Made by a program: the position numbers and the translations under genes
DNA from: an uncultured Rhizobiaceae bacterium
GTDB taxonomy: Bacteria; Pseudomonadota; Alphaproteobacteria; Rhizobiales; Rhizobiaceae
Reading direction: 5' to 3'
DNA length: 64,000 nt
Assembly (NCBI GenBank): GCA_964383325.1
Contig: CAYLGY010000001.1
Location: forward strand, 7,230 to 71,229
Shown here: piece after piece, positions 9,252-41,745 of the stretch
Layout: each line of letters begins with the position of its first letter
How positions within the stretch are numbered: the stretch's first letter is position 1
The notes under the pieces: model-generated
What the model was told of the DNA's origin: nothing
Databases searched by the model: none
Seen by the model: the letters and a program-made list of their open reading frames with translations, nothing else

Positions 9252-9304
9252 CCACAGCCCTCAATACTGATAGATGAAACATCATTCAGCCTGTCGACAC
9301 CGAT

Positions 9305-9613
9305 GTGCCCACAGGGCATTGTGGATCTGGAACATTGATAACTGCCCAGCAATTGCGCGCCGCAAGGGCGCTGCTCGGCATTGACCAGCGCAAGCTTGCC
9401 GAGCTGTCGGGACTATCCGTTCCGACCATCCAGCGCATGGAAGCGAGCGAAGCCGTCATTCGCGGCAATGTCGATTCGCTCGTCAAGCTCGTTTCCGCGC
9501 TCGAAGCCTCCGGCATCGAGCTGATCGGCGAGGGCGCGGCAAGCCTTGACGGCGGGCGCGGCATCCGGCTCCGGACACCGACGGGCCCAAAGGTGGAGAG
9601 GACCCCCGAGTGA
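9305..9613 (+). CDS. Small XRE-family helix-turn-helix protein
   Basis: ITAQQLRAARALLGIDQRKLAELSGLSVPTIQRME is a classic HTH_XRE segment. GTG start at 9305 (a TTG near 9335 is also possible). Stop overlaps the next gene's GTG start. Confidence 0.6.
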   Translation: MPTGHCGSGTLITAQQLRAARALLGIDQRKLAELSGLSVPTIQRMEASEAVIRGNVDSLVKLVSALEASGIELIGEGAASLDGGRGIRLRTPTGPKVERTPE

Positions 9614-14677: not shown

Positions 14678-14690
14678 GGAAGTTGCGACC

Positions 14691-16205: not shown

Positions 16206-16212
16206 GGACGCC

Positions 16213-16752
16213 ATGCCATTCAATCCGTTTCGCAACCTCCTGCGCCGCCCGCTGACCGACGATCCGCCGGTGCCCGCTGAGGCGCACGCCCGGCAGCTTG
16301 CCGCGGCCCTTGCGCGCACGGCTCGCCGCAAGCTTGGCCGAAGCCTTGCGATTCGTGCCATCGACGCCGGTTCCTGCAATGGCTGCGAGCTGGAACTCCA
16401 TGCGCTGGGCAACGCCTTCTACAGTCTCGAGCGGTACGGCCTGCACTTCGTTGCCTCGCCGCGCCACGCCGATGTGTTGCTGATAACGGGCCCGGTAACC
16501 CGGAACATGCGTGAAGCGGTGCTTCGGACCCATGATGCTGCGCCGCATCCGAAATGGGTGGTCGCGATCGGCGATTGCGCATTTGATGGCGGCTGTTTTG
16601 CCGGGAGCCCGGCGGTCCTTGACGGCGTTGCCTCGATTCTGCCAGTCGATCTCGTGATCCGGGGTTGTCCGCCTCGTCCGGCGGAAATCCTGCAGGGGCT
16701 GCTTGCCTTGCTGGAGGCCTCGGAGAACCCGCCGGCGCAATCAGCCGGCTGA
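16213..16752 (+). CDS. HycG/HyfI-like (NuoB-like) small subunit, 4 Cys for a [4Fe-4S] cluster retained
   Basis: ORF trimmed to MPFNPFRN.... Motifs DAGSCNGCELE, IGDCAFDGG and RGCPPRP are present. Confidence 0.85.
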   Translation: MPFNPFRNLLRRPLTDDPPVPAEAHARQLAAALARTARRKLGRSLAIRAIDAGSCNGCELELHALGNAFYSLERYGLHFVASPRHADVLLITGPVTRNMREAVLRTHDAAPHPKWVVAIGDCAFDGGCFAGSPAVLDGVASILPVDLVIRGCPPRPAEILQGLLALLEASENPPAQSAG

Positions 16753-16753
16753 T

Positions 16754-16806
16754 CGCGACTTTTCTGTTGCTTGCTAAACTGAAAAGTCACAGTCTTGCAA
16801 GTCGCG
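16754..16806 (+). promoter_or_regulatory. Nested/alternative inverted repeats between the Ehr operon and the next gene
   Basis: CGCGACTT (16754-61) pairs with AAGTCGCG (16799-806). GACTTTTC (16757-64) pairs with GAAAAGTC (16781-88). No T-run follows. Confidence 0.35.
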
Positions 16807-16828
16807 TATCAACAGGAGTAGCCAGGTC

Positions 16829-17344
16829 ATGACCGAGCCGAACAAGCCATCCGGGATCACTCTTGAAATGTTGCGAGGCGCCTACTCCATGCGAGCCGAA
16901 GCCTATGCACAGTTCTTCGACGTGCTGCGCGAGGAGTTCGGTGCCGAGCGAGCTGTCGAATTGATGTCTCGCGCGACCCGCCGCATGGGGCAAGGCATGG
17001 GACGGAAATTCGCCGGGTACGGACCACGGGATCTGGACGGGCTGCGCGACGCATTTCTTGGCGGCATTCCTTGCGCCGCCGACATGTTTGCACCCGAGAT
17101 CCAGCGCAGCGACGAGGAGAGGCTGGAAATCCAGTTTCATCGCTGCCCGCTGAAGGATTACTGGGTCGCGGCGGGACGTTCTGATGAGGATCTCGAACAT
17201 CTGTGCAAGGTGGCAGGCGCCATTGATGACGGGCTTTTCACCGAGGCGGGCTTCACGTTCAAAGGAGAGACCTGGAAGCCGGGACGCAGCGGCTGTTGTC
17301 TGCTGAGGGTCGAGCAGGGCCGGAATGTGGAAGGCAGCGTCTGA
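16829..17344 (+). CDS. ATC-hydrolase-family-like protein (L-2-amino-thiazoline-4-carboxylate hydrolase family, Cys-rich)
   Basis: 171 aa. HRCPLKDYW...HLCKVAGAIDD...GCCLLRV resembles the ATC_hydrolase family signature as I remember it; not verified by search. Confidence 0.55.
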   Translation: MTEPNKPSGITLEMLRGAYSMRAEAYAQFFDVLREEFGAERAVELMSRATRRMGQGMGRKFAGYGPRDLDGLRDAFLGGIPCAADMFAPEIQRSDEERLEIQFHRCPLKDYWVAAGRSDEDLEHLCKVAGAIDDGLFTEAGFTFKGETWKPGRSGCCLLRVEQGRNVEGSV

Positions 17345-17346
17345 CG

Positions 17347-17395
17347 CATGATCCCGGAAAGCTGACCTCCACCGTCCGGAAAAGACCCCTGTGCC
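17347..17395. repeat. REP/RIME-like intergenic element (variant copy)
   Basis: CATGATCCCGGAAAGCTGACC...GTCCGGAAAAGACC shares its CATGATCCCGGAAAG core with the copies at 27551, 27610 and 41703. Confidence 0.5.
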
Positions 17396-17513
17396 AGCAG
17401 GAAATTGGTTCAGGATGCCGATTCGACCAGGCGGTTAGCATATTTTTCTGGTCGGGTCCTTTCCAGTGGAAAACCGTAGCTGGCCAAGGTAATGGTGTGG
17501 CAATATGTTTAGT

Positions 17514-17529
17514 AACTGAACAACTGAAC
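17514..17529 (+). promoter_or_regulatory. Perfect tandem octamer AACTGAAC-AACTGAAC upstream of the 12-gene operon
   Basis: Read directly from the sequence, about 22 nt upstream of ATG 17551, in a locally AT-richer stretch. Confidence 0.3.
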
Positions 17530-17550
17530 AACCAGTCGTGACCCGGAAGG

Positions 17551-18066
17551 ATGCGCGGCACCATGAAGGTCGAAGAAGTCGTTGAGCTGTTCGAACGCGA
17601 GCGCGATGCCATCTGGCTGGAACAGCCTGAAGAGATCCGGATTCTCTCGCGCGGAGAGCATCCGCGAGGCATCGGATCCAGGGGCCAGTATCTGACGCCC
17701 ATCATGTTTGCAGAAGGGGCCGCCCGCAATCTGGCCGATGAAGTGCTGTGGAGCATCATCGGGTTCTGCGACCGTCCGGAGCTGGATTTCGCCACGCTGA
17801 AAGTCATGGCGGCAGAGATGGCAGGGCGCAAGGCAGGATTCTTCGAGCTGTTCGGACTGGAACATGTTTCCAGAATGGTCACGATCTATGCGCGCGCGGT
17901 GGATGGCACTCGCGACAGGGATGAGCTGAAGCGTCTCTCCCTCGCAATGTCGGCCTATGTCAATCGCGTGCATGTCTGGCTCGATGCTGCTTTTCCCTGG
18001 GGTGTGTGCAGCGGTTACATGCGTGCCGGTCATGGCCGGCGCAATGCAGAGGGACGGGAAGAATGA
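17551..18066 (+). CDS. Hypothetical helical protein (possibly related to the cucumopine-synthase C-terminal helical domain)
   Basis: 171-aa ORF with strong GC3 bias. Stop overlaps the next start (ATGA). No motif I can assign with certainty. Alternative start at ATG 17563. Confidence 0.55.
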   Translation: MRGTMKVEEVVELFERERDAIWLEQPEEIRILSRGEHPRGIGSRGQYLTPIMFAEGAARNLADEVLWSIIGFCDRPELDFATLKVMAAEMAGRKAGFFELFGLEHVSRMVTIYARAVDGTRDRDELKRLSLAMSAYVNRVHVWLDAAFPWGVCSGYMRAGHGRRNAEGREE

Positions 18067-18494
18067 AACTCGCGCTTGCCATGGCCGGCCGCGATGTCTG
18101 CCGGATCGAAGTCTGGGCGGACAAGGTGCCGTTGGTGGCGGATGCCTTGCGGCAGTTGCTGCCGGTAACCAGCATCGCCCAGCACGGAAAGATCGTCGGG
18201 GATCTTCTGTATTTCAGCCTGCCCGTGGCATTGCCGTCGCAGAACGCGCTGCCCTTGCAGGACATCTGCCGCTTGCGCCGCCGGCAGACGGGCAGCGCCG
18301 GCGGCTCGGTATGCCTTTATGGCCCGCGTCAGCAGATCTGCGTCTATTATGGCGACGACCTCGCGGACGAGCCATTCGAACTGTCGTATATTGGCGAGAT
18401 CGTGCAGGGTGCAACCGAGATGCAGCTGGCCGCGATGCAATGCTGGACCAGTCCCGGCGAGATCGTCACCCTGCGACTGCACGAAGAACCATGA
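18063..18494 (+). CDS. DUF3830-like / cyclophilin-like fold protein
   Basis: ORF 18006-18494 trimmed to MKLALAMAGRDVCRIEVWADKVPLVADALRQLLP.... The pattern resembles DUF3830 proteins from memory. Translationally coupled to the upstream gene. Confidence 0.55.
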   Translation: MKLALAMAGRDVCRIEVWADKVPLVADALRQLLPVTSIAQHGKIVGDLLYFSLPVALPSQNALPLQDICRLRRRQTGSAGGSVCLYGPRQQICVYYGDDLADEPFELSYIGEIVQGATEMQLAAMQCWTSPGEIVTLRLHEEP

Positions 18495-18536
18495 AGCTCA
18501 CGGACGAAAGAAACTGATACCGAGAGGAGAATCGAC

Positions 18537-19688
18537 ATGGGCAAGAGACTGAAATGGTTTGCCGGGCTTGGCCTCGCCGCCCTCGCTGGCGTGGCGCTGA
18601 TGCAGTCGGGCAACCGCCCGGCCATGGCCCAGGATGCGACTGCCGAGACGGTAACGTTCGGATTTTTCGGGCCGCTATCCGGTCGCTTCGGCGCCAATGG
18701 CGAGCGCTTCAAGGAGGCTATCGACCTCTTTGTCGAGCAGACGAATGCAAGCGGAGGGCTGGGCGGCCATCAGCTGATCGTGCTGCAGGAGGACGATCGC
18801 GGCGAACCGTTGCAAGCGACTGCGATTGCGCAGAAATACGTGGAGAACGAAGCAGTCGTGGCCGCCATCGGCTCGTTTACCAGCGGGGCATCGATCGCTG
18901 CCGGCGAGATCTTCGCCCAGGCAGGCTTGCCGCAGGTAAGTCCCTCCTCGTCGCATCCCGACTTCACGAAGATTTCGAAATATCAGTTCCGCATCCCCAA
19001 TACGCAGGACACGATGTCGCTGATGTATGTGAAGACGCTGAAGGAGAATGCGCCGGGCGAGCGTGTGGCGGTGATCTACTATCAGGATGACTGGGGGATC
19101 TTCGTCGGCGAGGCCACCAAGGCCGCGCTGGAGGAAGGCGGCGCCGAAGTGCCGATCCATGAAGCGATGCAGCCGGATGCGCGTGATTTCCGCCCGCTCG
19201 TGACCAAGCTGCGCCAGGCGGAAGTGGATAGCATCCTTCTTGCGAGCCATTACGGTCCGTCGGCCGTATTCCTGCAGCAATTGCGCCAGGCCGGACTGGA
19301 ACAGCCCGTCATCGGACCGGAAACCCTCTATAATCCGGAATTGCTCTCCCTCGCCGGAGAAGCTGCGAACGGTCTGGTCACCACCACCTACTTCTTCCCC
19401 GGCGACCCTGCGAAGGCTGGATTCGTGGAGGCTTACAAGGAGAAATACGGCCGTGAACCTGATCTCTGGGCCGCTTACGCCTGGGATGCCGTCGCAATCG
19501 CGGCGGAAGGGGCCCGCTCGCTGATCGAGGCAGGCCAGCCTGTTACCCGCGAGGGGCTGCGCGATGCGATCGACGCATTGCCGCCTTTCGAGGGTGTAAC
19601 CGGCGTGACCGAGTTCGTCGACGGAACGCCGGCGAAGGATCTGACGGTCCTAAAGATCGTCGATGGCGCCTATACATTGCTGAATTGA
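18537..19688 (+). CDS. Liv-type (Peripla_BP_6) ABC transporter substrate-binding protein
   Basis: Signal peptide ...ALMQSGNRPAMAQD followed by a LivK/AmiC-family-like sequence. GAGGAG RBS. Confidence 0.85.
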   Translation: MGKRLKWFAGLGLAALAGVALMQSGNRPAMAQDATAETVTFGFFGPLSGRFGANGERFKEAIDLFVEQTNASGGLGGHQLIVLQEDDRGEPLQATAIAQKYVENEAVVAAIGSFTSGASIAAGEIFAQAGLPQVSPSSSHPDFTKISKYQFRIPNTQDTMSLMYVKTLKENAPGERVAVIYYQDDWGIFVGEATKAALEEGGAEVPIHEAMQPDARDFRPLVTKLRQAEVDSILLASHYGPSAVFLQQLRQAGLEQPVIGPETLYNPELLSLAGEAANGLVTTTYFFPGDPAKAGFVEAYKEKYGREPDLWAAYAWDAVAIAAEGARSLIEAGQPVTREGLRDAIDALPPFEGVTGVTEFVDGTPAKDLTVLKIVDGAYTLLN

Positions 19689-19751
19689 TTCGAGCAGAAC
19701 CGGCGGCGGCAGCGATGCCGCCGTCCCTTTCCCGGAACCGGATGACGCGAG

Positions 19752-21632
19752 ATGGTCGAGCTGTTCCTCAGCCAGGTGGTCAACGGAGTCGTGATCGGCT
19801 TCGTCTATGCGCTGATTGCGCTCGGCTTCAGCCTGGTTTTCGGCGTCGCCAACATCATCAATTTCGCCCAGGGCGCCATGCTGACGCTCGGCGCTTTCAT
19901 GACGTTCACGATGGTCCGGCTCGGCGCCCCCATCGCGCTCGCCGTGGCAGTCGCCGTCGTGATCACGTCGCTCGCGGGCATGCTAATCGAAAGGCTGGCC
20001 CTGCGGCCGCTGCGAAACGCACCCTACATCGCGCCGCTGCTTTCGACCCTTGCCATTGCGATCATCTTCGATTCTGCGGCGGAGATCATATGGTCGGCGG
20101 AAATCCAGGCATTTCCCTCGCCGCTGTCGCGTTATGTGATCTTTGTCGGTTCGGCCTACCTGACCGGGGTCGATCTGACCATCATGGCGGTTTCCATCCT
20201 TGTCATGGCGGGTCTGATGCTGTTCCTGACGCGGAGCTGGATGGGTAATGCGCTGCGGGCGACTGCGCAGGACCCGGAAGCCGCCGCGCAGATGGGCATC
20301 AATGTCCCGCTGATGCACCAATTCTCCTTTGGACTTGCCGGGGCGCTCGGCGCGCTGGCGGGGGTGCTGATCGGCATGTACTACATGTCGGTATTTCCCC
20401 AGATGGGCATTCCCTACGGGCTGAAAGGCTTCGCCGCGGCGTTGCTCGGCGGGCTATCCTCCATTCCAGGCGCAATTGTCGGCGGGCTGCTGCTCGGCAT
20501 TCTCGAAAGTCTCGCCTCCGGCTATGTCGGCGAAGGCTATCGCGACATCATCGCCTACTCGGTTCTGCTGCTGGTCCTGATCGTCAAGCCAAGTGGCCTG
20601 TTCGGCTCGCGTTCACTTGATGCGCTCGGTGGGGCTTCCGGCGCATCAGGCGGGATCCCCACGACTTCGATCGTCGCGTCCATGGCAGGATCGACCAGCA
20701 GGTTCAGGGCGAGGCTAATCGAAGCGCCGCTGCCGGTCCTGCTGGCCGTGATCGCCGCCTTTGCGCTATTGCCGCTGGCGAGCAGCTCCGCCTATGTTCT
20801 GCAGATCGGCGTACAGTCGGCCATGTATGCGGTGCTGGCGATCAGCCTGACCCTACTGTCGGGTTCGGCGGGTGTAATGTCGATCGGCCATGCAGCATTT
20901 TTCGGGGCCGGCGCCTATGCGGCAGCGCTGGTTACCGTGCGGCTGGGCATTCCCGCAGAACTGGCTTTCCTCGCAGCCGGACTCGCGGGGGCCGTTCTGG
21001 CCACGATCTTCTACTGGCCGACGATCCGTCTGTCGGGCCATACGGTCGGCCTTGCCACGCTGGCCATCGGGCAAATCCTCTATCTCGTCTATCTGAACTG
21101 GATCGGCCTGACACGAGGCCCGATGGGCATTCCGGGGGTTCCACGGCCGGAATTGGGCCTGACCGGGACGAACATGCGCAGTCTTGTCGCGCAGTACTGG
21201 CAGATCCTCGTCGTGCTCGGCTTCGCCGTCACGGTTGCATATGCCTTGCTCAATTCGCCTATCGGGCGCGTATGGCGCGCAATCCGCGAGGATCGCCTGG
21301 CTGCGCACGTGTCGGGCGTACCGGTGCCGCGCTATCTCTCGACGGTCTTCGCCGTTTCCGGCTTTCTCGCCGGGCTGGCCGGTGCGCAATTCGCCTTTCT
21401 CCAGAATTTTGTCAGTCCGGATTCCTTCCTGATCGACACGTCGATCGTGCTGATCTCGATGATCGTGCTGGGTGGGCTCGGCAACATTACGGGTGCGATC
21501 CTTGGCGGCGTGCTGCTGGCGCTGCTGCCGGAATTGCTTCGCGAATTCGCGCAGTACCGCATGATCGCCTATGGAACGGTGCTGCTGCTGTTGTTGCGGT
21601 TCCGGCCACAAGGTCTGATGGGAACGAGATGA
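19752..21632 (+). CDS. Fused LivH-LivM branched-chain-type ABC permease
   Basis: 626 aa. The N-terminal half is LivH-like (VNGVVIGFVYALIALGFSLVFG), followed by a Gly/Ser-rich linker. The C-terminal half is LivM-like (SLTLLSGSAGVMSIGHAAFFGAGAY). Confidence 0.85.
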   Translation: MVELFLSQVVNGVVIGFVYALIALGFSLVFGVANIINFAQGAMLTLGAFMTFTMVRLGAPIALAVAVAVVITSLAGMLIERLALRPLRNAPYIAPLLSTLAIAIIFDSAAEIIWSAEIQAFPSPLSRYVIFVGSAYLTGVDLTIMAVSILVMAGLMLFLTRSWMGNALRATAQDPEAAAQMGINVPLMHQFSFGLAGALGALAGVLIGMYYMSVFPQMGIPYGLKGFAAALLGGLSSIPGAIVGGLLLGILESLASGYVGEGYRDIIAYSVLLLVLIVKPSGLFGSRSLDALGGASGASGGIPTTSIVASMAGSTSRFRARLIEAPLPVLLAVIAAFALLPLASSSAYVLQIGVQSAMYAVLAISLTLLSGSAGVMSIGHAAFFGAGAYAAALVTVRLGIPAELAFLAAGLAGAVLATIFYWPTIRLSGHTVGLATLAIGQILYLVYLNWIGLTRGPMGIPGVPRPELGLTGTNMRSLVAQYWQILVVLGFAVTVAYALLNSPIGRVWRAIREDRLAAHVSGVPVPRYLSTVFAVSGFLAGLAGAQFAFLQNFVSPDSFLIDTSIVLISMIVLGGLGNITGAILGGVLLALLPELLREFAQYRMIAYGTVLLLLLRFRPQGLMGTR

Positions 21633-22487
21633 TGGCGGAACGTCACGTCCATCCCGGTTCGTTGTCGATCCGCAAGGTGAGCCGCCGTTTTGGGGGCGTC
21701 GTCGCCGCCGATCAACTTGATTTCACCTTTCCCAAGGGCGAATTTGTCGCCGTGGTCGGCCCCAATGGCGCCGGCAAGTCGACACTGTTGCAGATGATCA
21801 GCGGCATCGTCAGGCCGCAGAGCGGCGAGATCCATCTGGGCGAGCGCCGGATCGACCGCTTGCGCCCGGAGGACATCGCCGCGCTTGGCATTGCCCGAAC
21901 CTTTCAGACCAGTCGCGTCTTCCCGATGCTTTCCATTCGCGACAGTATTCTGGTCGGCACGCAGCGGGAGGTGATCGGCGGCGGCCGTGCGCCGCGCGGC
22001 TACGGGGCACTGAGGGAAGTGGCGGCCGTTCTGCTCCGGCTGCCGGCCTATCGACGCAAGGTAGAGGCTGCGGAAGCGCGGGCGGAAGAGGTGATGCGTC
22101 TTTTCGGCGAAAGGCTGTGGCCGCGCCGAGACGACCCTTCCTTCTCCCTGAGCTATGCCAATCGGCGGCGGCTGGAGATCGCGAGGGCCCTTGTTTCCGA
22201 TCCCGACATCCTGCTGCTGGACGAGCCGGCCGCCGGCATGAATCCCACCGAGACCGACGAGTTGATCGATGTCGTCCTGCAATTGCGCAGCCGCCGGCCG
22301 GACATGACGATCGTCATGGTCGAGCACAAGCTGCAGGTGGTGCGTAAACTGGCGGAGCGTTGCATTGTCATGGCGCAGGGCGCGGCAATCGTAGACGCCG
22401 CCCCGGATGTGGCATTGGAGGATCCACGTGTCATCGAAGCCTATCTGGGCAGACGGCGCTCTGCGGCCGCCTTCGGGAGGATGGCCG

Positions 22488-22501
<14 letters not shown>
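21629..22501 (+). CDS. Liv-type ABC ATP-binding protein (LivG-like)
   Basis: ORF trimmed to MMAERHV... (overlaps the permease stop). Walker A GPNGAGKST, Walker B LLLDEPAAGMN. Confidence 0.85.
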
Positions 22502-23231
<730 letters not shown>

Positions 23232-23234
23232 GCC

Positions 23235-23846
23235 ATGGAAACCGAAATGAAACTCCGTCTGATCGATGCCGTGGCGCTGGCGGTGCGCGAGCATCGCGAC
23301 CTCTTTACCCGGCTTGACCAGGCGATTGGGGATGGCGATCATGGCGAGGCGATGCAGCGCGGCTTCGATGCCATAGTTGCAGAGCGCGAGAAGATCGCAG
23401 CACAGACGCTTCCGCAAGGCCTCGTCACGGCCGGTAAAACCCTTGTCATGACGATGGGCGGCGCGTCCGGTCCGCTTTATGGCACGTTCTTCATGGAGTT
23501 GGGCAAGGCACTCCCGGAAATGCCGGATCGCGCAAGTCTTGCAGCCGGGTTTGCACATGCGGTGGAACGCGTCGCCGCGCGAGGCAAGTCCGAACCGGGA
23601 CAGAAAACCCTGCTCGATGTGCTCTGTCCGATTGCGGAACTCCTGGGCAAGGACCCCGCGGCAGAGCCTGCACAGGTAGCGCAACTGGCGGCGGCAGCGG
23701 CTGAGGCAACCGTGCCGATGCAGGCGGTGCGCGGCAGAGCGGCCTTTCTTGGCGAGCGGTCGGTCGGCCATATGGATCCCGGCGCATGTTCCGCTGCATT
23801 GGTCATCGGCACGGTATGCCGGCTGCTGGAGGATGAAGCGGGATGA
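23235..23846 (+). CDS. dhaL: Dihydroxyacetone kinase subunit L (ADP-binding)
   Basis: The DQAIGDGDHGEAMQRGF motif is typical of the Dak2 domain. Starts 3 nt after the LivF-like stop. Confidence 0.85.
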   Translation: METEMKLRLIDAVALAVREHRDLFTRLDQAIGDGDHGEAMQRGFDAIVAEREKIAAQTLPQGLVTAGKTLVMTMGGASGPLYGTFFMELGKALPEMPDRASLAAGFAHAVERVAARGKSEPGQKTLLDVLCPIAELLGKDPAAEPAQVAQLAAAAAEATVPMQAVRGRAAFLGERSVGHMDPGACSAALVIGTVCRLLEDEAG

Positions 23847-24229
23847 ATGTTGCCATCGTCATTGTATCGCATTCGGCCAAGGTCGCGGAAGGAACCGCGG
23901 ACATGGTGCGCCAGATGGTGGGTGAAAGCGTCGCCGTGGCGCACACGGGCGGAAACGAGGCAGGTGGACTCGGGACCAGCGTTGCGCGGATCATGGCAGC
24001 AATAGACGAGGTATGGAACGAAAGCGGCGTGGCCGTTCTTGTCGACCTGGGCGGAGCGGAAAGCAATAGCGAAATGGCCATCGAGATGATGGACCCGGAG
24101 CGCGGCGCCCGGGTGGTAATCTGCAATGCTCCGATCGTCGAAGGTGCGGTGATCGCCGCCACAGAAGCTTCCGGCGGCTCATCGCTCGAAGAGGTGAAGG
24201 CGGTCGCCGAGGAACTGGCGGTACAATAG
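23843..24229 (+). CDS. dhaM: DhaM-type phosphotransferase, EIIA(Man)-like domain only
   Basis: 128 aa. N-terminal VAIVIVSHSAKVAEG (phospho-His region). Overlaps the dhaL stop. Confidence 0.8.
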   Translation: MNVAIVIVSHSAKVAEGTADMVRQMVGESVAVAHTGGNEAGGLGTSVARIMAAIDEVWNESGVAVLVDLGGAESNSEMAIEMMDPERGARVVICNAPIVEGAVIAATEASGGSSLEEVKAVAEELAVQ

Positions 24230-24241
24230 AGAGGCAGGCGA

Positions 24242-24550
24242 ATGGCGCAGGACTGGAAACGATCCTCGGTCGTGCTCACCAATGAGTCAGGGCTGCATGC
24301 GCGGCCGGCGGTCAAGCTCACTCAGCTTGCCAAGACTCACGACGGTCCGGTCGAGATCGCGCTTGCCGCTGACGGGCCATGGGTCAATGCCAAGAGCCCG
24401 GTGCAGCTCATGCGTTTCCGGGCGGCTCCGGGAAATCGCCTCCATGTGCGGGTAGCCGGAGACGGCGCACAGGCGATGGTAGACCAGATCCGGGCTCTGG
24501 CCGAGCGCGGATTCGACGAGAAGCCCGCACAGGCCGGCGGCGATGGCTGA
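24242..24550 (+). CDS. HPr-family phosphocarrier protein
   Basis: 102 aa. The NESGLHARPAVKL motif is the His-15-type phosphorylation site. Confidence 0.8.
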   Translation: MAQDWKRSSVVLTNESGLHARPAVKLTQLAKTHDGPVEIALAADGPWVNAKSPVQLMRFRAAPGNRLHVRVAGDGAQAMVDQIRALAERGFDEKPAQAGGDG

Positions 24551-26150
24551 ACGGCGTATCCGGGGCGTGGCCGCTTCTCCCGGCCTGGTTGTCGGACGGC
24601 TTCTCAGGCTCGATTCCGCCAGGACTCCAGGTGGTACCGGGGCTCTCGGACCAGAACATTTGCGCGCAGCAATCGCCGAAGCTCAGGCCTCGCTCGCGGA
24701 TCTGGCTGCAGGTCTCGAGGCGGGAGAAGCCGAAATCATCCTGACGCACATTGCTTTTCTTGAGGACGAGGAGCTGGCGCGGCCTGCATTCGAGGCCATT
24801 GCTGCCGGCGCTCCTGCCGATGCGGCCTGGCGCGATGCGCTGGATGCGGAAATTGCTGCGTATGAAGCCGCCGAGGATGCCTATTTCCGTGCGCGGGCAG
24901 CGGATTTCGCCGATGTCCGCGACCGGGTGCTTGCTGCTCTGCACGGCCAGGCCGTCGATCGGTTGGAAATTGCGACAGGCACGATCGTCCTCGCCGACGA
25001 TTTGCGCCCCTCACAATTGCTCGCGGCACGATGGGAGGCTAGCAGCGCCATTGCCCTTGCCGCAGGTAGTCCCAACAGCCATGCAGCCATGCTGGCGCGG
25101 GGACGGGGCATTGCCATGGTGGTCGGACTTGGCGATGCGGTGCTTTCTGCCGAGGGCGAAGCGCTTCTCGACGGATTCGCGGGCGAGCTGATTCTGCAAC
25201 CGGCCTCCCGCCGAAGGGAGGCAGCGCATCGTTGGCAGCAGCGCCAGGCCGAGGATGCGCAACAAGCCGAAGATCTTGCTGCCCTGCCGGCCCGAACGCG
25301 GGACGGCACCCTGATTGGCGTCGAGTTCACGCTGGCCGGACCTGACGAGATCGAAGGGCTGGATCCGGCTCGATGCGACGGGATCGGCCTGGTGCGGACG
25401 GAGCTTTTCCTCGACCGGCTTGCATTGCTGCAGGATGAAGAGCGGCAATATGCCGCCTATTCCCGCATTCTTTCCTGGGCGAACGGGCGCCCCGTGACTT
25501 TCCGTACCGTGGATGCGGGCGGCGACAAACCGATCTCGGGCTATACGCTGGAAGCTGAGGCCAATCCTTTTCTCGGCATGCGCGGCATCCGCCTGTCGCT
25601 GGCGAGACCGGAGATCTTTCGCGTTCAGTTGCGTGCCCTGGCGAGGGCTGCGGCCCGCGGCAATCTGCGAATCATGTTGCCCATGGTGACCTCGCCTGGA
25701 GAACTGGACGCCGCGCGCGAAATGCTGGCGAGCGAGATCGAGGCACTGGCGCGAAACGGAATTGCGCACGCGCTGCCGCCTCTCGGCATCATGGTGGAAG
25801 TCCCGTCCGTTGCCCTGATGCCGGAACGGTTTGCAGCGGACTTCTACTCGATCGGCTCCAACGACCTGAGTCAGTACCTGTTCGCCGCCGATCGGGGAAA
25901 TACAGCCTGCGCGCATCTTGCGCCGATGAACGATCCGGCGCTGTTGCAGCTTCTGGCCAATGTCGCTTCGCATGGTCGTGCCACTGGCCGATCCGTCAGC
26001 CTGTGCGGCGATGCCGGTGGCGATCCGGAAATGGTTCCGCACTTGCTCAAGGCAGGATTGCGCAGCCTCTCCGTTCAGCCTGGCCTGGCCAGCCGGGTGA
26101 AGACCGCCATTGCGCGAGTGCATCTTGAAGGGAGCTGCGCAGATGGTTGA
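24543..26150 (+). CDS. PEP-protein phosphotransferase (Enzyme I paralogue)
   Basis: 535 aa. N-terminal GVAASPGLVVGR; the PEP-utilising domain has GGDKPI, RPEIFRVQLRAL, MVEVPS and SIGSNDLSQY. Confidence 0.85.
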   Translation: MAERRIRGVAASPGLVVGRLLRLDSARTPGGTGALGPEHLRAAIAEAQASLADLAAGLEAGEAEIILTHIAFLEDEELARPAFEAIAAGAPADAAWRDALDAEIAAYEAAEDAYFRARAADFADVRDRVLAALHGQAVDRLEIATGTIVLADDLRPSQLLAARWEASSAIALAAGSPNSHAAMLARGRGIAMVVGLGDAVLSAEGEALLDGFAGELILQPASRRREAAHRWQQRQAEDAQQAEDLAALPARTRDGTLIGVEFTLAGPDEIEGLDPARCDGIGLVRTELFLDRLALLQDEERQYAAYSRILSWANGRPVTFRTVDAGGDKPISGYTLEAEANPFLGMRGIRLSLARPEIFRVQLRALARAAARGNLRIMLPMVTSPGELDAAREMLASEIEALARNGIAHALPPLGIMVEVPSVALMPERFAADFYSIGSNDLSQYLFAADRGNTACAHLAPMNDPALLQLLANVASHGRATGRSVSLCGDAGGDPEMVPHLLKAGLRSLSVQPGLASRVKTAIARVHLEGSCADG

Positions 26151-26565
26151 GCAGCGGACCCAACGGGCCGTTCACCGTTACAAGACCATTCTGCAGCGGG
26201 TGATCCACGCCCGCCCGTCCGGAACGCGCCAGCGGCTGGCAACGGCGCTCGGCACCAATCGTTCCTTCGTCTCGCAGATCACCAACCCGGCATACAAGGT
26301 GGCGATTCCGGCGCACCATGTCGAGACGATTCTGGAAATCTGCCGCTTTTCTCCGGCGGATCGGGCCCAGTTCCTGCGCGCTTATGACGAAGCCCATCCG
26401 AGGCAGCGCCAGGAACGGGCTATCCGTGTCCGGACCCTGGAGCTGACCGTCCCGGACCTCGGCACGATGCGCAGCAACCGGCTGGTAGACGAAGCATTGC
26501 GGGAGATGGCTCGCCACATCACACGCATCCTGCAGGATAAGAGTACGGATCAAGGGACCAGATGA
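26143..26565 (+). CDS. Hypothetical HTH-containing protein embedded in the dha operon
   Basis: ORF 26110-26565 trimmed to MVEQRTQ... (ATGGTTGA overlap with the EI stop; GAAGGGAG RBS). TRQRLATALGTNRSFVSQITNP looks like an HTH. Its stop overlaps the dhaK start. Confidence 0.5.
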   Translation: MVEQRTQRAVHRYKTILQRVIHARPSGTRQRLATALGTNRSFVSQITNPAYKVAIPAHHVETILEICRFSPADRAQFLRAYDEAHPRQRQERAIRVRTLELTVPDLGTMRSNRLVDEALREMARHITRILQDKSTDQGTR

Positions 26566-27548
26566 TGAAGAAACTGATCAATGACCCCGCAAGGGTGCTG
26601 GAAGAGAGTCTTGACGGCTTTGCAGCGGTTCATGCCGATTTCGTCGTCATGGATGAGTCACGCCGATTTTTGCGCCGGCGCAGCCTCAAGGCCGGAAAGG
26701 TGGCGCTGGTCTCCGGTGGCGGATCCGGACATGAGCCGCTGCATATCGGCTTTGTCGGTGAGGGAATGCTGGATGCAGCGGTCCCCGGCGCGGTCTTCAC
26801 CTCTCCCACCCCGGACCGGATCCTGGCCGCGATCGAGGCGACGGAGCAAGGCGTCGGTACGCTGCTGATCGTCAAGAACTATGAAGGCGACGTCATGAAT
26901 TTCGAGATGGCCGCCGAAATGGCTGCCAATGCTACGGCGCGGGTGCTGGTGGATGATGACGTGGCCGTCGACAACTCTTCCTTCTCCCTCGGTCGTCGCG
27001 GGGTAGCGGGAACCCTTGTCGTGGAAAAGATCGTGGGTGCAGCCGCCGAGCGTGGCGATTCGCTGGAGGCGCTGGCGAACCTCGGCGCGCGGGTCAACTC
27101 GGTGACGAAGTCGATGGGCGTCGCGCTGAGTTCCTGTACCGTTCCGGCCGCCGGTCAGCCGACCTTCGAGCTCGCCGAGAACGAGATCGAGATGGGCGTC
27201 GGCATTCATGGCGAACCGGGGCGCCGCCGCGCGCCCATGGCAGCAGCCGATTCCATCGTCGAGGAACTCCTGGATGCCATCCTGCCCCAGCTCGGCGCCC
27301 GACGCGGGCAGTCCTGCCTGCTGTTCATCAATGGATTCGGCGGCACGCCGGCGATGGAGCTCTATCTGGTCTTTCATAGTGCGAGACGCAGGCTGGAAGC
27401 GGAAGGGCTGACCGTAGCCCGTAGCCTTGTCGGTACCTATGTCACTTCCCTCGAGATGGCTGGATGCTCGATTAGCGTCACCCTGCTGGATGAGGAGCTG
27501 ACCGGACTATGGGATGCTCCCGTCTGTACGCCTGCGCTGCGCTGGTAG
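26562..27548 (+). CDS. dhaK: Dihydroxyacetone kinase subunit K (substrate-binding)
   Basis: 328 aa. Dak1 hallmarks VALVSGGGSGHEP and LIVKNYEGDVMNF. Confidence 0.9.
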   Translation: MMKKLINDPARVLEESLDGFAAVHADFVVMDESRRFLRRRSLKAGKVALVSGGGSGHEPLHIGFVGEGMLDAAVPGAVFTSPTPDRILAAIEATEQGVGTLLIVKNYEGDVMNFEMAAEMAANATARVLVDDDVAVDNSSFSLGRRGVAGTLVVEKIVGAAAERGDSLEALANLGARVNSVTKSMGVALSSCTVPAAGQPTFELAENEIEMGVGIHGEPGRRRAPMAAADSIVEELLDAILPQLGARRGQSCLLFINGFGGTPAMELYLVFHSARRRLEAEGLTVARSLVGTYVTSLEMAGCSISVTLLDEELTGLWDAPVCTPALRW

Positions 27549-27550
27549 AG

Positions 27551-27593
27551 CATGATCCCGGAAAGTGGTCCCCACTTTCTGGATCAGATCATG
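27551..27593. repeat. REP/RIME-like palindromic intergenic element (full copy)
   Basis: CATGATCCCGGAAAGTGG-tcc-CCACTTTCTGGATCAGATCATG: near-perfect inverted arms immediately after the dhaK stop. Confidence 0.65.
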
Positions 27594-27609
27594 CCCCACC
27601 AGGAATCCA

Positions 27610-27643
27610 CATGATCCCGGAAAGTGGTCCCCACGGATCCATG
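27610..27643. repeat. REP/RIME-like element (half copy)
   Basis: CATGATCCCGGAAAGTGGTCCCCAC is identical over 25 nt to the left arm of the copy at 27551. Confidence 0.65.
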
Positions 27644-27888: not shown

Positions 27889-28098
27889 ATGAATACTGGA
27901 ACTGTAAAATTCTTTAATGCAACCAAAGGTTACGGCTTTATCGAGCTTGGCAATGGCCAGCCGGATGTGTTCGTTCACATTTCTGCTGTCGAGCGGGCCG
28001 GAATGCGCAGCCTCGCCGAGGGCCAGAAATTGTCCTTCGACATTGTGAGGGATAACCGCAACGGCAAGAGCGCGGCCGAAAACCTGCAGGCCGCCTGA
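27889..28098 (+). CDS. cspA: Cold-shock protein (CspA family)
   Basis: 69 aa. [15 protein letters not shown] (RNP1) and DVFVHISAV (RNP2). AGGAGA RBS. Confidence 0.95.
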
Positions 28099-28149: not shown

Positions 28150-28320
28150 GGGTGCTTCAGGACCTTTGACCACGGATGTACTGGCATTGGTCCATTGAGG
28201 CACCTGAAGCATCGGAGCCACAGCCTGGCGCGCGAGGCTGACTCCGGTGCAGGAAATTTGCAACTGCCTGGAACTTGCTTCAGGCGATTCCCCCAAGGGC
28301 CGGTTCGTTCGGCCCTTTTT
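28150..28320 (+). ncRNA. Candidate structured RNA (long cspA 3' UTR or 3'-UTR-derived/independent sRNA)
   Basis: No credible ORF in this stretch. The 9-mer TGCTTCAGG occurs twice, with its exact complement between the two copies. The region ends in a canonical terminator at 28295-28320. The 5' end is undefined. Confidence 0.3.
28295..28320 (+). terminator. Rho-independent terminator
   Basis: AAGGGCCG-gttcgtt-CGGCCCTT followed by TTT; a T-run occurs only on the + strand. Confidence 0.7.
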
Positions 28321-28549: not shown

Positions 28550-31282
28550 TCAGACCAGAGCACCATGGCAGTGTTTGAATTTCCGGCCGGAGCCGCAAGG
28601 ACAGGGTTCATTCCGGCCAACGCGGCCCCAGGTCGCAGGATCCTTTGGATCCCGCTGCTCCGGCGCCACGGTCCGAACGGGTCGGCTGGCAACCATTACT
28701 TCCTCGCCTTGCCCGCCAAAGGCATCCTCGCCCGTCGACGCGTCGAAATGATGCGCCTCGCCTTCCGGGACATCCGGCGGGGGAGCTTCTGCGGCTTCGC
28801 GTACAATCTCCACGCGCATGAGCTGCGACGTTACCACCTGGCGCAGATTCACCAGCATGGCCTGGAATAGCTCGAAAGCTTCGGACTTGTACTCGTTCAG
28901 CGGGTCGCGCTGCGCATAGCCACGGAATCCCACGACCGAGCGAAGATGATCCAGATTCACCAGATGCTCACGCCACAGAGCGTCGAGCGCCTGCAACATG
29001 ATGGACTTCTCGACATAGGCCATGACTTCCGGACCGAACCGCTCCGCACGTTCGGACATCGCCTTGTCGGCAGCTTCGGTGATGCGCGCGCGGATGTCCT
29101 CCTCGTCGATTCCCTCCTCGGCTGCCCATTCCTCGATCGGCAGATCGAGATTGAGCATCATGGCAACGCCCTGCGTCAGCCCCTCGACGTCCCACTGCTC
29201 CGCATAGGCGGTCTCGGGGATGTTCCGCGCCACCAGATCGGCGATCACATCGTGGCGCATCTCCTCGACCATCTCGGACAGATGGGTCCCTTCCATCAGC
29301 TCGATGCGCTGTTCGAAGATCACCTTGCGCTGATCGTTCATCACATCGTCGTACTTGAGCAAATTCTTGCGAATGTCGAAGTTGCGCGCTTCGACCTTTT
29401 TCTGCGCCTTCTCCAGCGCCTTGGTGATCCAGGGATGTACGATGGCCTCATCTTCCTTGAGGCCGAGCTTCTGCAACATGCCATCCATCCGGTCGGTGCC
29501 GAAGATGCGCATCAGGTCGTCTTCCAGCGACAGGTAGAATTTGGAGCGCCCCGGATCACCCTGACGGCCGGAGCGGCCGCGAAGCTGATTATCGATACGA
29601 CGGCTTTCATGCCGCTCGGTTGCAAGGACGAAGAGGCCGCCAGCGGCGATCGCCTCTTCCTTCAAACGCTGGACGTCCTCGCGGATGGCTTTCTCCCGCG
29701 CCTCCCGCTCCGGTCCCGCAGGCAAGTCACCCAATTCTGCGGCGATACGCATTTCGGCATTGCCGCCGAGCTGGATGTCGGTGCCGCGGCCCGCCATGTT
29801 GGTGGCGATGGTGATCGCGCCAGGCTTGCCGGCCTGCGCGACGATCTGCGCCTCGCGTTCATGGTGACGGGCATTGAGAACCTCGAAATTCTTGATGCCC
29901 TCCTTGCGGAGCCGCTCGGCAAGCATCTCGGATTTCTCGATCGAAGTCGTGCCGACGAGTACCGGTTGGCCCTTTGCATGCGCCGCCTTGATCTCCCGGA
30001 CAATGGCCCGGTACTTCTCCTCGGCGGTGCGGTAGACTTCGTCGTCCTCGTCGATCCGCTGGACAGGCAGGTTGGTGGGGACCTCGGTGACCTCTAGCCC
30101 GTAAATGTTGCCGAATTCCTCCGCTTCCGTGGCCGCCGTGCCCGTCATGCCCGCAAGCTTCTCGTACATACTGAAATAATTCTGGAAGGTGATCGAGGCG
30201 AGCGTCTGGTTCTCCGGCTGGATCGCCACATGCTCCTTGGCTTCCAGCGCCTGATGCAGGCCTTCCGAATAGCGGCGGCCGGGCATCATGCGGCCCGTGA
30301 ACTCGTCGATGATGACGATCTCGCCGTCGCGAACAATGTAGTCCTTGTCGCGCTGGAAAAGCCGGTGCGCCTTGAGTGCGTTGTTCACGTGATGAACGAT
30401 GGCGACATTCTCGATGTCGTAGAGCGTTTCGCCCTTCAGCAGGCCAGCTTCGCGCAGCAGGCCCTCGATCTTTTCCGTACCGACCTCGGTGAAGGTCGCC
30501 GTGCGCTGCTTCTCGTCCACTTCGTAGTCTTCCGGCGAGAGATGCGCCATGAACGTGTCGATCTGGTTGTACAGATCGGACTTGTCGTCCAGCGGGCCGG
30601 AAATGATCAGCGGCGTGCGCGCTTCGTCGATCAGGATGGAATCGACCTCGTCCACGATGGCGAAATGGTGGCCACGCTGGACCATTTGCGCGCGCTCATA
30701 TTTCATGTTGTCGCGGAGATAGTCGAAACCCAGCTCGTTATTGGTGGCATAGGTGACATCGCAGGCATAGGCTTCCCGCCTCTCCTCGTCGTTGAGGCCA
30801 TGACGGATCACCCCGACGGTAAGTCCCAGATAGCGATAGATCTGACCCATCCAGTCGGCATCGCGCTGCGCCAGGTAATCATTGACGGTGACGACATGGA
30901 CGCCCTTCCCGGACAGGGCATTGAGATAGACTGGCAGGGTCGCCACGAGCGTCTTGCCTTCACCGGTACGCATCTCGGCGATGCCGCCGCCGTTGAGCAC
31001 AATGCCGCCGATGAGCTGCACGTCGAACGGACGCATGCCGAGGACGCGCTTCGAAGCCTCGCGAACGACGGCAAAAGCAGGTACGAGCAGTTCCTCCAGA
31101 CTGGTCCCATCCGAAAGCTTCTGCCGGAACTCTCCGGTCCTTGCCCGCAGCGCCTCATCGGACAATGCGCTGATCTCCGGTTCCAGCGCATTGATCGCCT
31201 TGACAGTGGGAGCATATGACCGGATACGCCGGTCATTGGCCGAGCCGAATACCTTGCGTGCGAGGGCGCCTAAGCTGACCAT
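28550..31282 (-). CDS. secA: Preprotein translocase ATPase SecA
   Basis: ORF 28550-31378 trimmed to [21 protein letters not shown].... DEAD-motor motifs ([28 protein letters not shown]) and a C-terminal Zn finger [14 protein letters not shown]. Confidence 0.95.
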
Positions 31283-31541
31283 GAAAAGGCCTTTCCGATC
31301 TTGTTTACCCGCAATTCTCCACGATCTGCCGTAGGACCGGCAGCCGGTCGGGTCTGAAACTGGTCGGCCGCGCGCCAATTGGGTTCTGGACGCATGCCTG
31401 GAGGACAGATAAGAGGGGGTCTGTTTGATGTCAACTTTGCGCGGCTCTGCAGCGAAGTCATATTTGCAGCCGATTTTTGAGTTGAGGATGCGGCGATGCG
31501 GGTCATGACCCGCATTTTACAAATGGAATCGGAGAATCAAG

Positions 31542-41651: not shown

Positions 41652-41685
41652 GATTCCGGAAAGCGAAAGCCGCTTTCCGGGATCG
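41652..41685. repeat. REP/RIME-like palindromic element (variant)
   Basis: GATTCCGGAAAGCG-aaa-GCCGCTTTCCGGGATCG. Confidence 0.55.
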
Positions 41686-41702
41686 TGGGCTTATTACCTG
41701 CG

Positions 41703-41745
41703 CATGATCTTGTCCGAAAAGCGGAAACCACTTTCCGGGATCATG
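41703..41745. repeat. REP/RIME-like palindromic element (full copy)
   Basis: CATGATCTTGTCCGAAAAGCGG-aaa-CCACTTTCCGGGATCATG. Confidence 0.65.

Follow-up and report, generated by a model that had tools for sequence, protein, structure and literature searches.

A block of 12 plus-strand genes at 17563–27548 of the window (the whole 64,000-nucleotide stretch analyzed here, from contig CAYLGY010000001.1 of an uncultured Rhizobiaceae bacterium) combines a pair of small proteins, ORF1 and ORF2, related to Pictet-Spenglerases, with a Liv-type ATP-binding cassette (ABC) importer, a dihydroxyacetone kinase (Dha) cassette that carries its own phosphotransferase system (PTS) proteins, and a putative helix-turn-helix (HTH) regulator, ORF11 (Table 1). 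We tentatively propose that the 12 genes form one catabolic operon, under the control of a repressor, for a conjugate of an amino acid and a three-carbon carbonyl compound, the triose of which would be phosphorylated from phosphoenolpyruvate (PEP); we put this reading somewhat short of an even chance. The amino acid of the conjugate is probably aromatic or heteroaromatic, such as tryptophan or histidine. The first-pass annotation had suggested that an opine-like substrate is cleaved to a dihydroxyacetone-like product. Homology of the pair to opine synthases, the conserved grouping of the pair with Liv and Dha genes, a second link to a Dak-family kinase, and a regulator encoded in the cassette speak for that suggestion, whereas the linkage is not universal, the cassette is portable, and we still infer the cleavage itself, together with the direction of the reaction, its substrate and products, and the repressor role of ORF11. 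With corrections, that interpretation is the best-supported hypothesis. All components come from known families; the combination, which the annotation could match to no described pathway and for which literature searches likewise found none, appears to be undescribed, as do a split Pictet-Spenglerase-type enzyme in a catabolic setting and operator/HTH control of this kind.

In the proposed pathway, the Liv-type solute-binding protein (SBP) and ABC importer would take up the conjugate via its amino-acid end. ORF1 and ORF2, with the KslB/McbB fold, would then run the Pictet-Spengler chemistry backwards, by ring opening to an iminium followed by hydrolysis, and this cleavage would free the amino acid, which would pass to general metabolism, and dihydroxyacetone or glyceraldehyde. 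DhaK would bind the triose, and a relay from PEP via Enzyme I (EI), HPr, and DhaM to DhaL-ADP would yield dihydroxyacetone phosphate (DHAP) or glyceraldehyde 3-phosphate (GAP) for central metabolism; this strongly exergonic, PEP-driven phosphorylation would pull the otherwise unfavorable cleavage. ORF11 would bind a palindrome just 5′ of ORF1, thereby governing all 12 genes. In its most specific form, which we regard as possible though doubtful, ORF1/ORF2 would be the first dedicated catabolic “retro-Pictet-Spenglerase,” a two-subunit lyase that opens a tetrahydro-β-carboline- or spinacine-type amino acid adduct of dihydroxyacetone or glyceraldehyde, pulled by PEP-dependent triose phosphorylation.

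The ORF1/ORF2 pair and the Pictet-Spenglerase family

ORF1, annotated at first as a helical unknown, belongs to a known Pfam family, the helical bundle PF18631 (Cucumopine_C; 123 bits vs. a cutoff of 27, E 1.3e-35), and its sequence matches in the PDB include McbB (3x27, at 5e-9) and KslB-type Pictet-Spenglerase entries. For ORF2, the initial label “DUF3830-like” is reflected in a sub-threshold match (19.5 vs. 26 bits), whereas Cyclophil_like2 passes its threshold (26.1 vs. 22.7) and the cyclophilin-like fold is confirmed by an AlphaFold2 model (pLDDT 93.7), for which Foldseek returns the KslB barrel (TM-score 0.78–0.79, root-mean-square deviation 2.3 Å) and McbB (TM-score 0.78). ORF2 also aligns with the riorf22-type protein of plasmid pRi1724 (hhalign probability 92%). 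No NCBIfam model matches ORF1, ORF2, or ORF11, and a literature search on DUF3830 gave no result.

In a Lautropia sp. metagenome-assembled genome (MAG) (L018, 9995–10993), a single 332-aa protein combines ORF1 and ORF2, joined by an Ala-rich linker of ~35 residues, in the domain order of KslB, and this fusion matches KslB across both domains at 1.8e-10; the fusion gene is followed by a Liv importer, and Dha genes are absent from the locus. Because the helical bundle precedes the barrel in KslB, with the reverse order in McbB (PMC12012969), ORF1 followed by ORF2 corresponds to the KslB order. Based on the PF18631 match, the barrel fold match, and the Lautropia fusion, the ORF1/ORF2 pair is assigned, from sequence and model comparison, as a split member of the bacterial Pictet-Spenglerase/cucumopine-mikimopine synthase family (McbB, KslB, Cus, Mis), and the two proteins would assemble into a two-subunit enzyme. 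In place of the one-polypeptide form of the family (~300–340 aa), the window has two ORFs with an ATGA overlap; of the loci with the pair, only L018 has the fusion. The split form is not uncommon in the family: HMMER, run in full over 1.84 billion representatives, found only 207 relatives, and of the best 150 of these, ~94 are stand-alone (130–200 aa) and ~37 are fused (260–410 aa). Stand-alone proteins of the ORF1 type are rare (30 clusters among 5.8 billion proteins).

The comparison with KslB (Kitasatospora setae; PDB 9ns6, 9nst, 9k0a) and McbB (PDB 3x27) extends to residues of the active site. In common with both, the pair has the PF18631 bundle and the cyclophilin-like barrel, a GS-x-GQY(L/F)T motif, a stacking Phe, an H-x-x-V-x-G-(D/E)-x-x-Y strand, and, probably, an acidic catalytic-loop residue. 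GSRGQYLTP is among the motifs that are invariant in the ortholog alignment of ORF1, as is the stacking Phe of GFFELFGL, which aligns with the stacking F89 of KslB, and the amino-acid-binding strand is kept as ORF2 QHGKIVGDLLY vs. KslB DHAVVSGESMY (V223–Y230; KslB residue roles from PMC12012969). The essential Glu274 of KslB (Glu97 in McbB) lies within a YGP(T/L)TE motif (PMC12012969). In the HMMER alignment with McbB, the McbB Glu falls on ORF2 Glu103, and hhalign with the pRi1724 relative aligns ORF2 GSVCLYGPRQQICVYYGD with GAVYLYAPGQTICLTYGK, with ITE next; D98-D99-L-A-D-E103, in which D98, D99, and E103 are invariant, is therefore the candidate catalytic loop of ORF2. The catalytic Glu is probably retained. 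A dead enzyme, with KslB Glu274 on ORF2 Gln91 as in a phmmer alignment, was considered and rejected: in the hhalign and McbB alignments, the YGPRQQ turn of ORF2 corresponds to the preceding hairpin (YAPGQT in Mis), and the catalytic loop follows the next strand. In the region matching the α-ketoglutarate site of KslB, ORF2 has invariant Cys84, Arg89, Gln90, and Gln91. Unlike KslB and McbB, which belong to natural-product clusters, the window pair has its domains on separate polypeptides, a barrel of <20% identity, and a place in an operon for import and catabolism, and the direction of its reaction is probably reversed.

In every clade of relatives, the split pair lies in or near the locus of an SBP-dependent importer (Liv, Opp, polar-amino-acid ABC, or TRAP), together with catabolic partners; the weakest such link is that of L024/L017, where the TRAP system is ~5 kb away on the opposite strand. 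At L023, where the pair is 50% identical to that of the window, the pair and a MarR gene are divergent from an operon with an Opp-type SBP and permeases, a cupin, a fused ATP-type dihydroxyacetone kinase, and a pyridoxal phosphate enzyme, as well as an N-methyl-L-tryptophan-oxidase-like flavoenzyme (300 bits vs. a cutoff of 257). At this locus, the pair is linked independently, for a second time, to a Dak-family kinase, here of another type and alongside an importer of another family. At L007, the pair is followed by a TRAP transporter, a cupin, IclR, hydantoinase A/B, and an HpcH aldolase. In a clade of 41–50% identity (L031, L033, L047, L048), the pair, often duplicated, is in a polar-amino-acid ABC operon with short-chain dehydrogenases/reductases (SDRs). 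Three of these loci (L033, 2219–11279; L047/L048, 4146–13377) have two tandem split pairs, two SDRs, and a HutH-like aromatic amino acid ammonia-lyase, to which L047/L048 add an M20 peptidase; the neighbors in L047/L048 are actinobacterial-looking (LGFP-repeat protein). The HutH-like enzyme fits release of an amino acid by the pair, and the operon of these three loci possibly serves histidine-derived opine-like catabolism.

The Ri plasmid pRi1724 of Rhizobium rhizogenes carries both forms of the family. A 308-aa single-chain PF18631 gene, mis (L022, 6614–7540), is beside rolB-family genes inside the T-DNA; the split pair riorf22/riorf23 (DUF3830-like and PF18631) lies just past a T-DNA border-like repeat (7878–7901; expected 0.01), and after it come genes for an amino-acid ABC importer and for hydantoinase/oxoprolinase (cf. 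PMC4242671). Assignment of mis to 8531–9498 was rejected once the 308-aa gene and the border-like repeat had been found. Split pairs of the riorf22/23 type are also present on T-DNA-free Sinorhizobium medicae plasmids (L043 = pMl1, 9531–10498). The plasmid and window systems share a split pair beside an amino-acid ABC importer, on pRi1724 on the bacterial side of the border; unlike the window pair, riorf22/23 is plasmid-borne, has the barrel gene first, a helical part ~26% identical to that of the window, and polar-amino-acid ABC and hydantoinase/oxoprolinase neighbors rather than Liv and Dha. With an SBP-dependent importer adjoining an opine-synthase-related enzyme, for which riorf22/23 is a precedent, the window has a feature of Agrobacterium-type opine loci. 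In the mas/moc pattern, opine-catabolic enzymes are homologous to the T-DNA synthases. The pRi1724 layout parallels mas/moc and, by this analogy, speaks for split pairs acting catabolically, in the reverse direction; opine catabolic genes usually adjoin the T region (PMC8087989).

In a biosynthetic role of the window operon, the pair would join a C3 carbonyl and an amino acid taken up by the importer into a β-carboline- or opine-like product, as a signal or for triose detoxification, with the kinase setting the triose pool. The operon has an importer and no exporter, tailoring enzymes, or biosynthetic neighbors, and a kinase that removes dihydroxyacetone would compete with synthesis. Furthermore, related split pairs sit with catabolic enzymes (HutH-like lyase, oxidases, hydantoinases, aldolases), and on pRi1724 it is the single-chain synthase, separate from the split pair, that is inside the T-DNA, the pair being outside it beside uptake genes. 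Thus, a biosynthetic role is very unlikely, even though all characterized family members (McbB, KslB, Cus, Mis, and fungal OSases) are synthases (PMC12012969; PMC12536604) and the triose-derived carbonyl methylglyoxal is a substrate of some (PMC12536604). For the catabolic reading, the condensation of tryptophan with methylglyoxal by McbB and fungal enzymes provides family precedent for a C3 carbonyl partner (PMC12536604).

Transcription unit, conservation, and the operator-like palindrome

Each of the 12 genes has an ATG start that follows a purine-rich sequence resembling a Shine-Dalgarno site. The 11 junctions measure, in order, -4, 42, 63, -4, -14, 3, -4, 12, -8, -8, and -4 nt, exactly as first annotated, and the ORF list likewise agrees with the twelve plus-strand ORFs reported then, except at the start of ORF1: 17563 is more likely than 17551, with GGAAGGA 11 nt 5′ of it. 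The 167-aa product from 17563 is identical to the gene-caller protein P0001, and orthologs align from that start. The annotation had allowed for internal promoters or terminators that split the block; simple scans found no convincing one (sigma-70-like promoters included), returning inside the block one weak promoter-like match and one weak plus-strand terminator-like match, at chance level or below. The first convincing plus-strand terminator (28295–28317) is beyond a separate cspA-like gene (27889–28098), and an Rfam scan gave no family match. Given junctions of -14 to +63 nt and the lack of credible terminators or promoters inside the block, the 12 genes are regarded as a tight operon.

The synteny survey proposed with the first-pass annotation was carried out by tblastn of the twelve window proteins against loci fetched from genomes and metagenomes, and it found the combination kept across genera, the nearest being Kaistia, Aquamicrobium, and uncultured Alphaproteobacteria. 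The complete 12-gene order is present in Kaistia granuli DSM 23481 (L012), Kaistia adipata DSM 17808 (L016), an Aquamicrobium MAG (L015), L011, and L027; four further loci (L005, L008, L014, and L026) show it as far as their contigs extend. Protein identities in the 12-gene loci are 53–83%, and the flanking genes vary between loci. Since the order recurs in at least five complete and four contig-truncated loci of other genera, the arrangement is well beyond chance. In neighbor-joining trees, the window branches outside a group that unites the other 12-gene loci and a six-gene clade (L001/L028), from which an old origin of the 12-gene order is deduced, these trees being distance-based and soft; the 12-gene state is probably ancestral there, and the Dha cassette was probably lost in the six-gene clade. 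For the nearest ORF2 relative with some context (L044), the contig ends before the Dha position.

ORF11 had been annotated simply as an HTH ORF, a label that weak XRE-type signals support and that no Pfam match at threshold confirms. The profile search gave the XRE protein 3f6w (E 0.047) and HTH_31 (E 0.024, 15 bits vs. 27), both weak, and the top Foldseek matches of a single-sequence model (pLDDT 74.8) are all HTH domains of lambda cI or C-proteins, also weak (E 0.14–1). ORF11 is kept at 58–65% identity in all 12-gene loci and at ~46% in 24 replicons of Rhizobium, Sinorhizobium, Phyllobacterium, and Microvirga. The cassette context of ORF11 was examined in four loci, three intact (Sinorhizobium, Rhizobium, Phyllobacterium) and one from Microvirga. 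In Sinorhizobium sp. B11 (L021/L039), Rhizobium sp. T136 (L040), and Phyllobacterium zundukense (L042), a CUT1 sugar ABC importer and a fused ATP-type dihydroxyacetone kinase (DAK) are combined with DhaL-DhaM-HPr-EI-ORF11-DhaK, so that one uncharacterized operon holds two Dak kinases with different energy coupling. These operons, on chromids and plasmids, share with the window the order of the six-gene cassette, the ORF11 homolog, and operator half-sites; unlike the window, they have a carbohydrate importer and the ATP-dependent DAK, and neither a Pictet-Spenglerase-like pair nor a Liv importer. Because it is also found behind CUT1 importers, the Dha/PTS cassette is a generic, portable module. 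On a Microvirga ossetica plasmid (L041, 8811–13385), an IS5 transposase cuts the cassette to HPr-EI-ORF11-DhaK, with DhaL and DhaM missing. A literature search on DhaM in Sinorhizobium returned nothing relevant.

Upstream of ORF1, the palindrome TGTTTAGTAACTGAACA is unique in the window (expected 0.05), and TTGTTGAGT(n)ACTAAACAA occurs at the same position in every 12-gene locus, preceded in the others by conserved CTTGCC-N18-TAGCAAT boxes. The palindrome is absent from the six-gene (Dha-less) loci and from L007, L023, L024, and L044; it occurs only in loci with the Dha cassette and its ORF11 gene. Related half-sites TGTTGAGT / ACTAAACA lie ~100 nt 5′ of the first gene in the CUT1-Dha operons of Sinorhizobium, Rhizobium, and Phyllobacterium (ATGTTGAGTA...TTACTAAACAACATTACTCAACA in Phyllobacterium). 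Because the palindrome co-occurs with ORF11, we propose that ORF11, although encoded in the Dha cassette, would bind it as an operator and regulate the promoter ahead of the pair. Of the internal evidence, this proposed link speaks most strongly for the twelve genes as one functional unit. A generic promoter scan gave no match upstream of ORF1. The six-gene loci L001 and L028 share a different motif, GGGATTGTGCTGC(A/C)AATGGATTTGCGC, ~90–110 nt 5′ of ORF1, which suggests that six-gene loci are under another regulator.

Several observations weigh against a single catabolic operon built around a lyase. L001/L010, L018, and L028 hold the first six genes (pair and Liv importer) with no adjacent Dha genes; in Sinorhizobium, Rhizobium, and Phyllobacterium, the Dha/PTS cassette with ORF11 is preceded instead by CUT1 sugar import genes and an ATP-DAK; and the Dak linkage of L023 is a single locus with the pair divergently transcribed. 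The -35-like box of the window is displaced by 6 nt relative to the other loci, so that the ORF1 promoter in the window is not established. Within the pair, the placement of the catalytic Glu is ambiguous, in that one phmmer alignment sets KslB E274 on the invariant Gln91 of ORF2, and the alignments judged topologically correct need a loop two residues longer than that of KslB to reach Glu103; R256 and K264, which bind α-ketoglutarate in KslB, are not kept in ORF2. A literature search for an enzymatic retro-Pictet-Spengler reaction returned chemistry reviews only, and we know of no family enzyme reported as a lyase, of no PF18631 enzyme assigned a catabolic role so far, and of no opine built from a triose.

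The first two of these observations would fit two unrelated modules on one transcript, in which the juxtaposition of the pair and Liv importer with the Dha cassette is accidental and has persisted, the pair and importer handle an amino-acid-like compound of which no product gets to the kinase, and the Dha genes serve ordinary dihydroxyacetone/glycerol metabolism or PTS-type signaling; the score of DhaK as an ordinary equivalog also fits. We consider such a chance association unlikely. LivF and DhaL are 3 nt apart in the window and ~14 nt apart in the other loci, and the gene order persists although the flanks have changed and identity has dropped to ~60%. Moreover, the distant pair at L023 is again beside a Dak-family kinase, of a different type; the ORF1 operator strictly co-occurs with the regulator gene of the Dha cassette, the Dha-less loci having a different motif; and no enzyme of the operon except the pair could feed the kinase.

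Importer, kinase cassette, and implications of the proposed operon

The profile scores bear out the transporter and Dha family labels of the first-pass annotation (Peripla_BP_6, LivHM, LivG, LivF, DhaL, DhaM, HPr, EI, DhaK). The SBP, the fused LivH-LivM permease, and the LivG- and LivF-like ATPases make up the full LIV-I component set of a HAAT/Liv-type ABC importer. Against the NCBIfam equivalogs, all scores are well below the Leu/Ile/Val cutoffs: SBP 146 vs. 477, LivH 199 vs. 379, LivG 197 vs. 362, and LivF 233 vs. 441 bits. The nearest PDB entry to the SBP is 3hut (3e-57), with LivK at 1e-31, on the amino-acid-binding side of the family. Relative to LivK, the SBP keeps Ser79 and Glu226, with Thr102 replaced by Ser and Tyr202 by His; the corresponding residues in LivJ/K structures are those that we take to hold the α-amino-acid group. 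Judging from these residues, the ligand probably has an amino-acid head yet is not a plain branched-chain amino acid.

DhaK, DhaL, and DhaM all score above their equivalog cutoffs (Table 1), HPr is above its family-level cutoff, and EI, with three domains, is just under its own. The catalytic and phospho-accepting motifs of all five proteins are intact, including the hemiaminal His and the Asp and His substrate residues of DhaK, and the components of the relay from PEP via EI to HPr are all encoded in the operon. In Escherichia coli, the DhaK pocket binds trioses covalently via a His hemiaminal. The window system resembles DhaK/DhaL/DhaM of E. coli in having all key residues and a relay driven by PEP; it differs in a single-domain DhaM, in an operon that brings its own HPr and a full-length EI paralog, in a 140-aa XRE-like regulator rather than the AAA+ enhancer-binding DhaR, and in the grouping of the kinase with an ABC importer and a Pictet-Spenglerase-like enzyme. 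Dihydroxyacetone may be the physiological substrate of DhaK; glyceraldehyde or another short ketose is also conceivable.

Phosphorylation could also come first. DhaKLM would then act on a triose-derived Amadori/Heyns-type conjugate that has kept a hydroxy-ketone, from which the pair, as a deglycase/imine hydrolase, would free the amino acid and DHAP or GAP. This order would parallel fructoselysine kinase FrlD and deglycase FrlB, and calls on the same gene set, hence the same synteny evidence, as cleavage before phosphorylation; in addition, the L023 oxidase is from the sarcosine/N-methyl-tryptophan/fructosyl-amino-acid oxidase superfamily, which acts on N-substituted amino acids, and iminium chemistry belongs to the Pictet-Spenglerase mechanism (PMC12012969). 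It is nevertheless quite unlikely, because DhaK is a standard equivalog with the usual small-substrate His, Asp, and His, which a bulky N-substituent would probably not fit, and because two features typical of true Pictet-Spenglerases, the aromatic-stacking Phe and the amino-acid-binding strand, are conserved in the pair.

As an operon for cleavage followed by phosphorylation, the block would resemble the agrobacterial opine operons (for example, the mannityl-opine moc genes) and the fructoselysine frl operon, which join an SBP importer, a conjugate-splitting enzyme, and a kinase for the sugar-like half, with a catabolic enzyme homologous to a synthase; the enzyme families differ, and the window locus looks chromosomal. 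If ORF1/ORF2 is a retro-Pictet-Spenglerase as outlined above, this would define a new class of opine-like nutrients for soil Alphaproteobacteria, and the split mis homologs riorf22/23 next to the Ri-plasmid T-DNA would be explained as opine-degrading enzymes. Pictet-Spenglerases are sought-after biocatalysts, of which the characterized ones are all synthases, so that a natural reverse enzyme would be new enzymology. It would also provide a handle on bacterial breakdown of cucumopine/mikimopine-type opines and of the Pictet-Spengler (Maillard-type) adducts common in plant material; in the literature searched, no enzyme is assigned to degradation of either. The Dha kinase cassette, which brings along EI, HPr, and a small HTH regulator, can be viewed as a plug-in “triose sink” behind different importers, which would give a concrete, testable role to the puzzling sugar-transporter-less PTS of Alphaproteobacteria. 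The type strains K. granuli DSM 23481 and K. adipata DSM 17808 are cultivable and have the complete operon, making the hypothesis directly testable.

Feature coordinates and flanking region

Table 1. Genes of the 12-gene block and associated sequence elements, in window coordinates.
Feature	Coordinates	Strand	Basis
ORF1, helical-bundle subunit of putative split Pictet-Spenglerase-like enzyme, 167 aa	17563..18066	+	PF18631 Cucumopine_C
ORF2, cyclophilin-like β-barrel subunit, 143 aa	18063..18494	+	ATGA overlap with ORF1; model and Foldseek
Periplasmic SBP, HAAT/Liv type, signal peptide-like N-terminus	18537..19688	+	Peripla_BP_6 E 6e-62
Fused LivH-LivM type permease, 626 aa	19752..21632	+	Two BPD_transp_2 stretches; LivH = N half, LivM = C half
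LivG-like ABC ATPase	21629..22501	+	ABC_tran and BCA_ABC_TP_C; NF008449 197 bits, under cutoff
LivF-like ABC ATPase	22488..23231	+	ABC_tran and BCA_ABC_TP_C; NF008626 233 bits, under cutoff
DhaL, ADP-binding subunit of dihydroxyacetone kinase	23235..23846	+	TIGR02365 192 bits vs. cutoff 138; GDGDHG motif
DhaM, EIIA(Man)-type phosphoryl donor, single domain	23843..24229	+	TIGR02364 137 bits vs. cutoff 98; IVSHS His motif
HPr-family phosphocarrier	24242..24550	+	TIGR01003 54.6 vs. 47.9; GLHARPA motif
EI paralog (PEP-protein phosphotransferase)	24543..26150	+	Three PEP-utilizer domains; TIGR01417 332 bits vs. cutoff 342; NSHAAMLAR His motif
ORF11, small XRE/lambda-repressor-like HTH protein, 140 aa, proposed operon repressor	26143..26565	+	Weak profile and model matches
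DhaK, substrate-binding subunit of dihydroxyacetone kinase	26562..27548	+	TIGR02363 459 vs. 406; GGGSGHEP, NYEGD, GIHGEPG
REP-like dispersed repeat copy 5′ of block	17347..17395		Core GATCCCGGAAAG at 17350
Operator-like palindrome TGTTTAGTAACTGAACA and third half-site ACTGAACA	17506..17530		41 nt 5′ of ORF1 ATG
REP-like repeat closing block, two copies, nested inverted repeats I1-I5	27551..27643		Motif copies at 27554, 27613

The locus looks chromosomal rather than part of a Ti, Ri, or opine-catabolic plasmid, its neighbors being secA, a csp gene, and complex-I/hydrogenase-like genes. A search of PLSDB plasmids for near-identical DNA gave short ABC-ATPase matches only, and the locus is thus no known plasmid region. 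The REP-like elements that had been noted as bracketing the block do so, and they are members of a dispersed, intergenic REP/RIME-like palindromic repeat with the core GATCCCGGAAAG(TGGTCCCCAC), of which the window has 7 copies vs. 0.57 expected (at 17350, 27554, 27613, and 41652–41742, and also at 2890).

On the 5′ side, plus-strand genes at 14610–17344 encode hydrogenase-4/complex-I-like large (Complex1_49kDa/NiFeSe) and small (Oxidored_q6) subunits, followed by a 171-aa ATC_hydrolase-like protein. The latter gene, directly 5′ of the block, was rejected as a part of the operon, because this neighborhood, the gene included, recurs in no contigs but those of the same species (L002, L004). On the 3′ side, the operon is separated from secA (28550–31378, minus strand) by a plus-strand cspA/cspE-like cold-shock gene that has a long upstream region of its own, and the terminator-like hairpin at 28295–28317 is ~200 nt 3′ of this gene.

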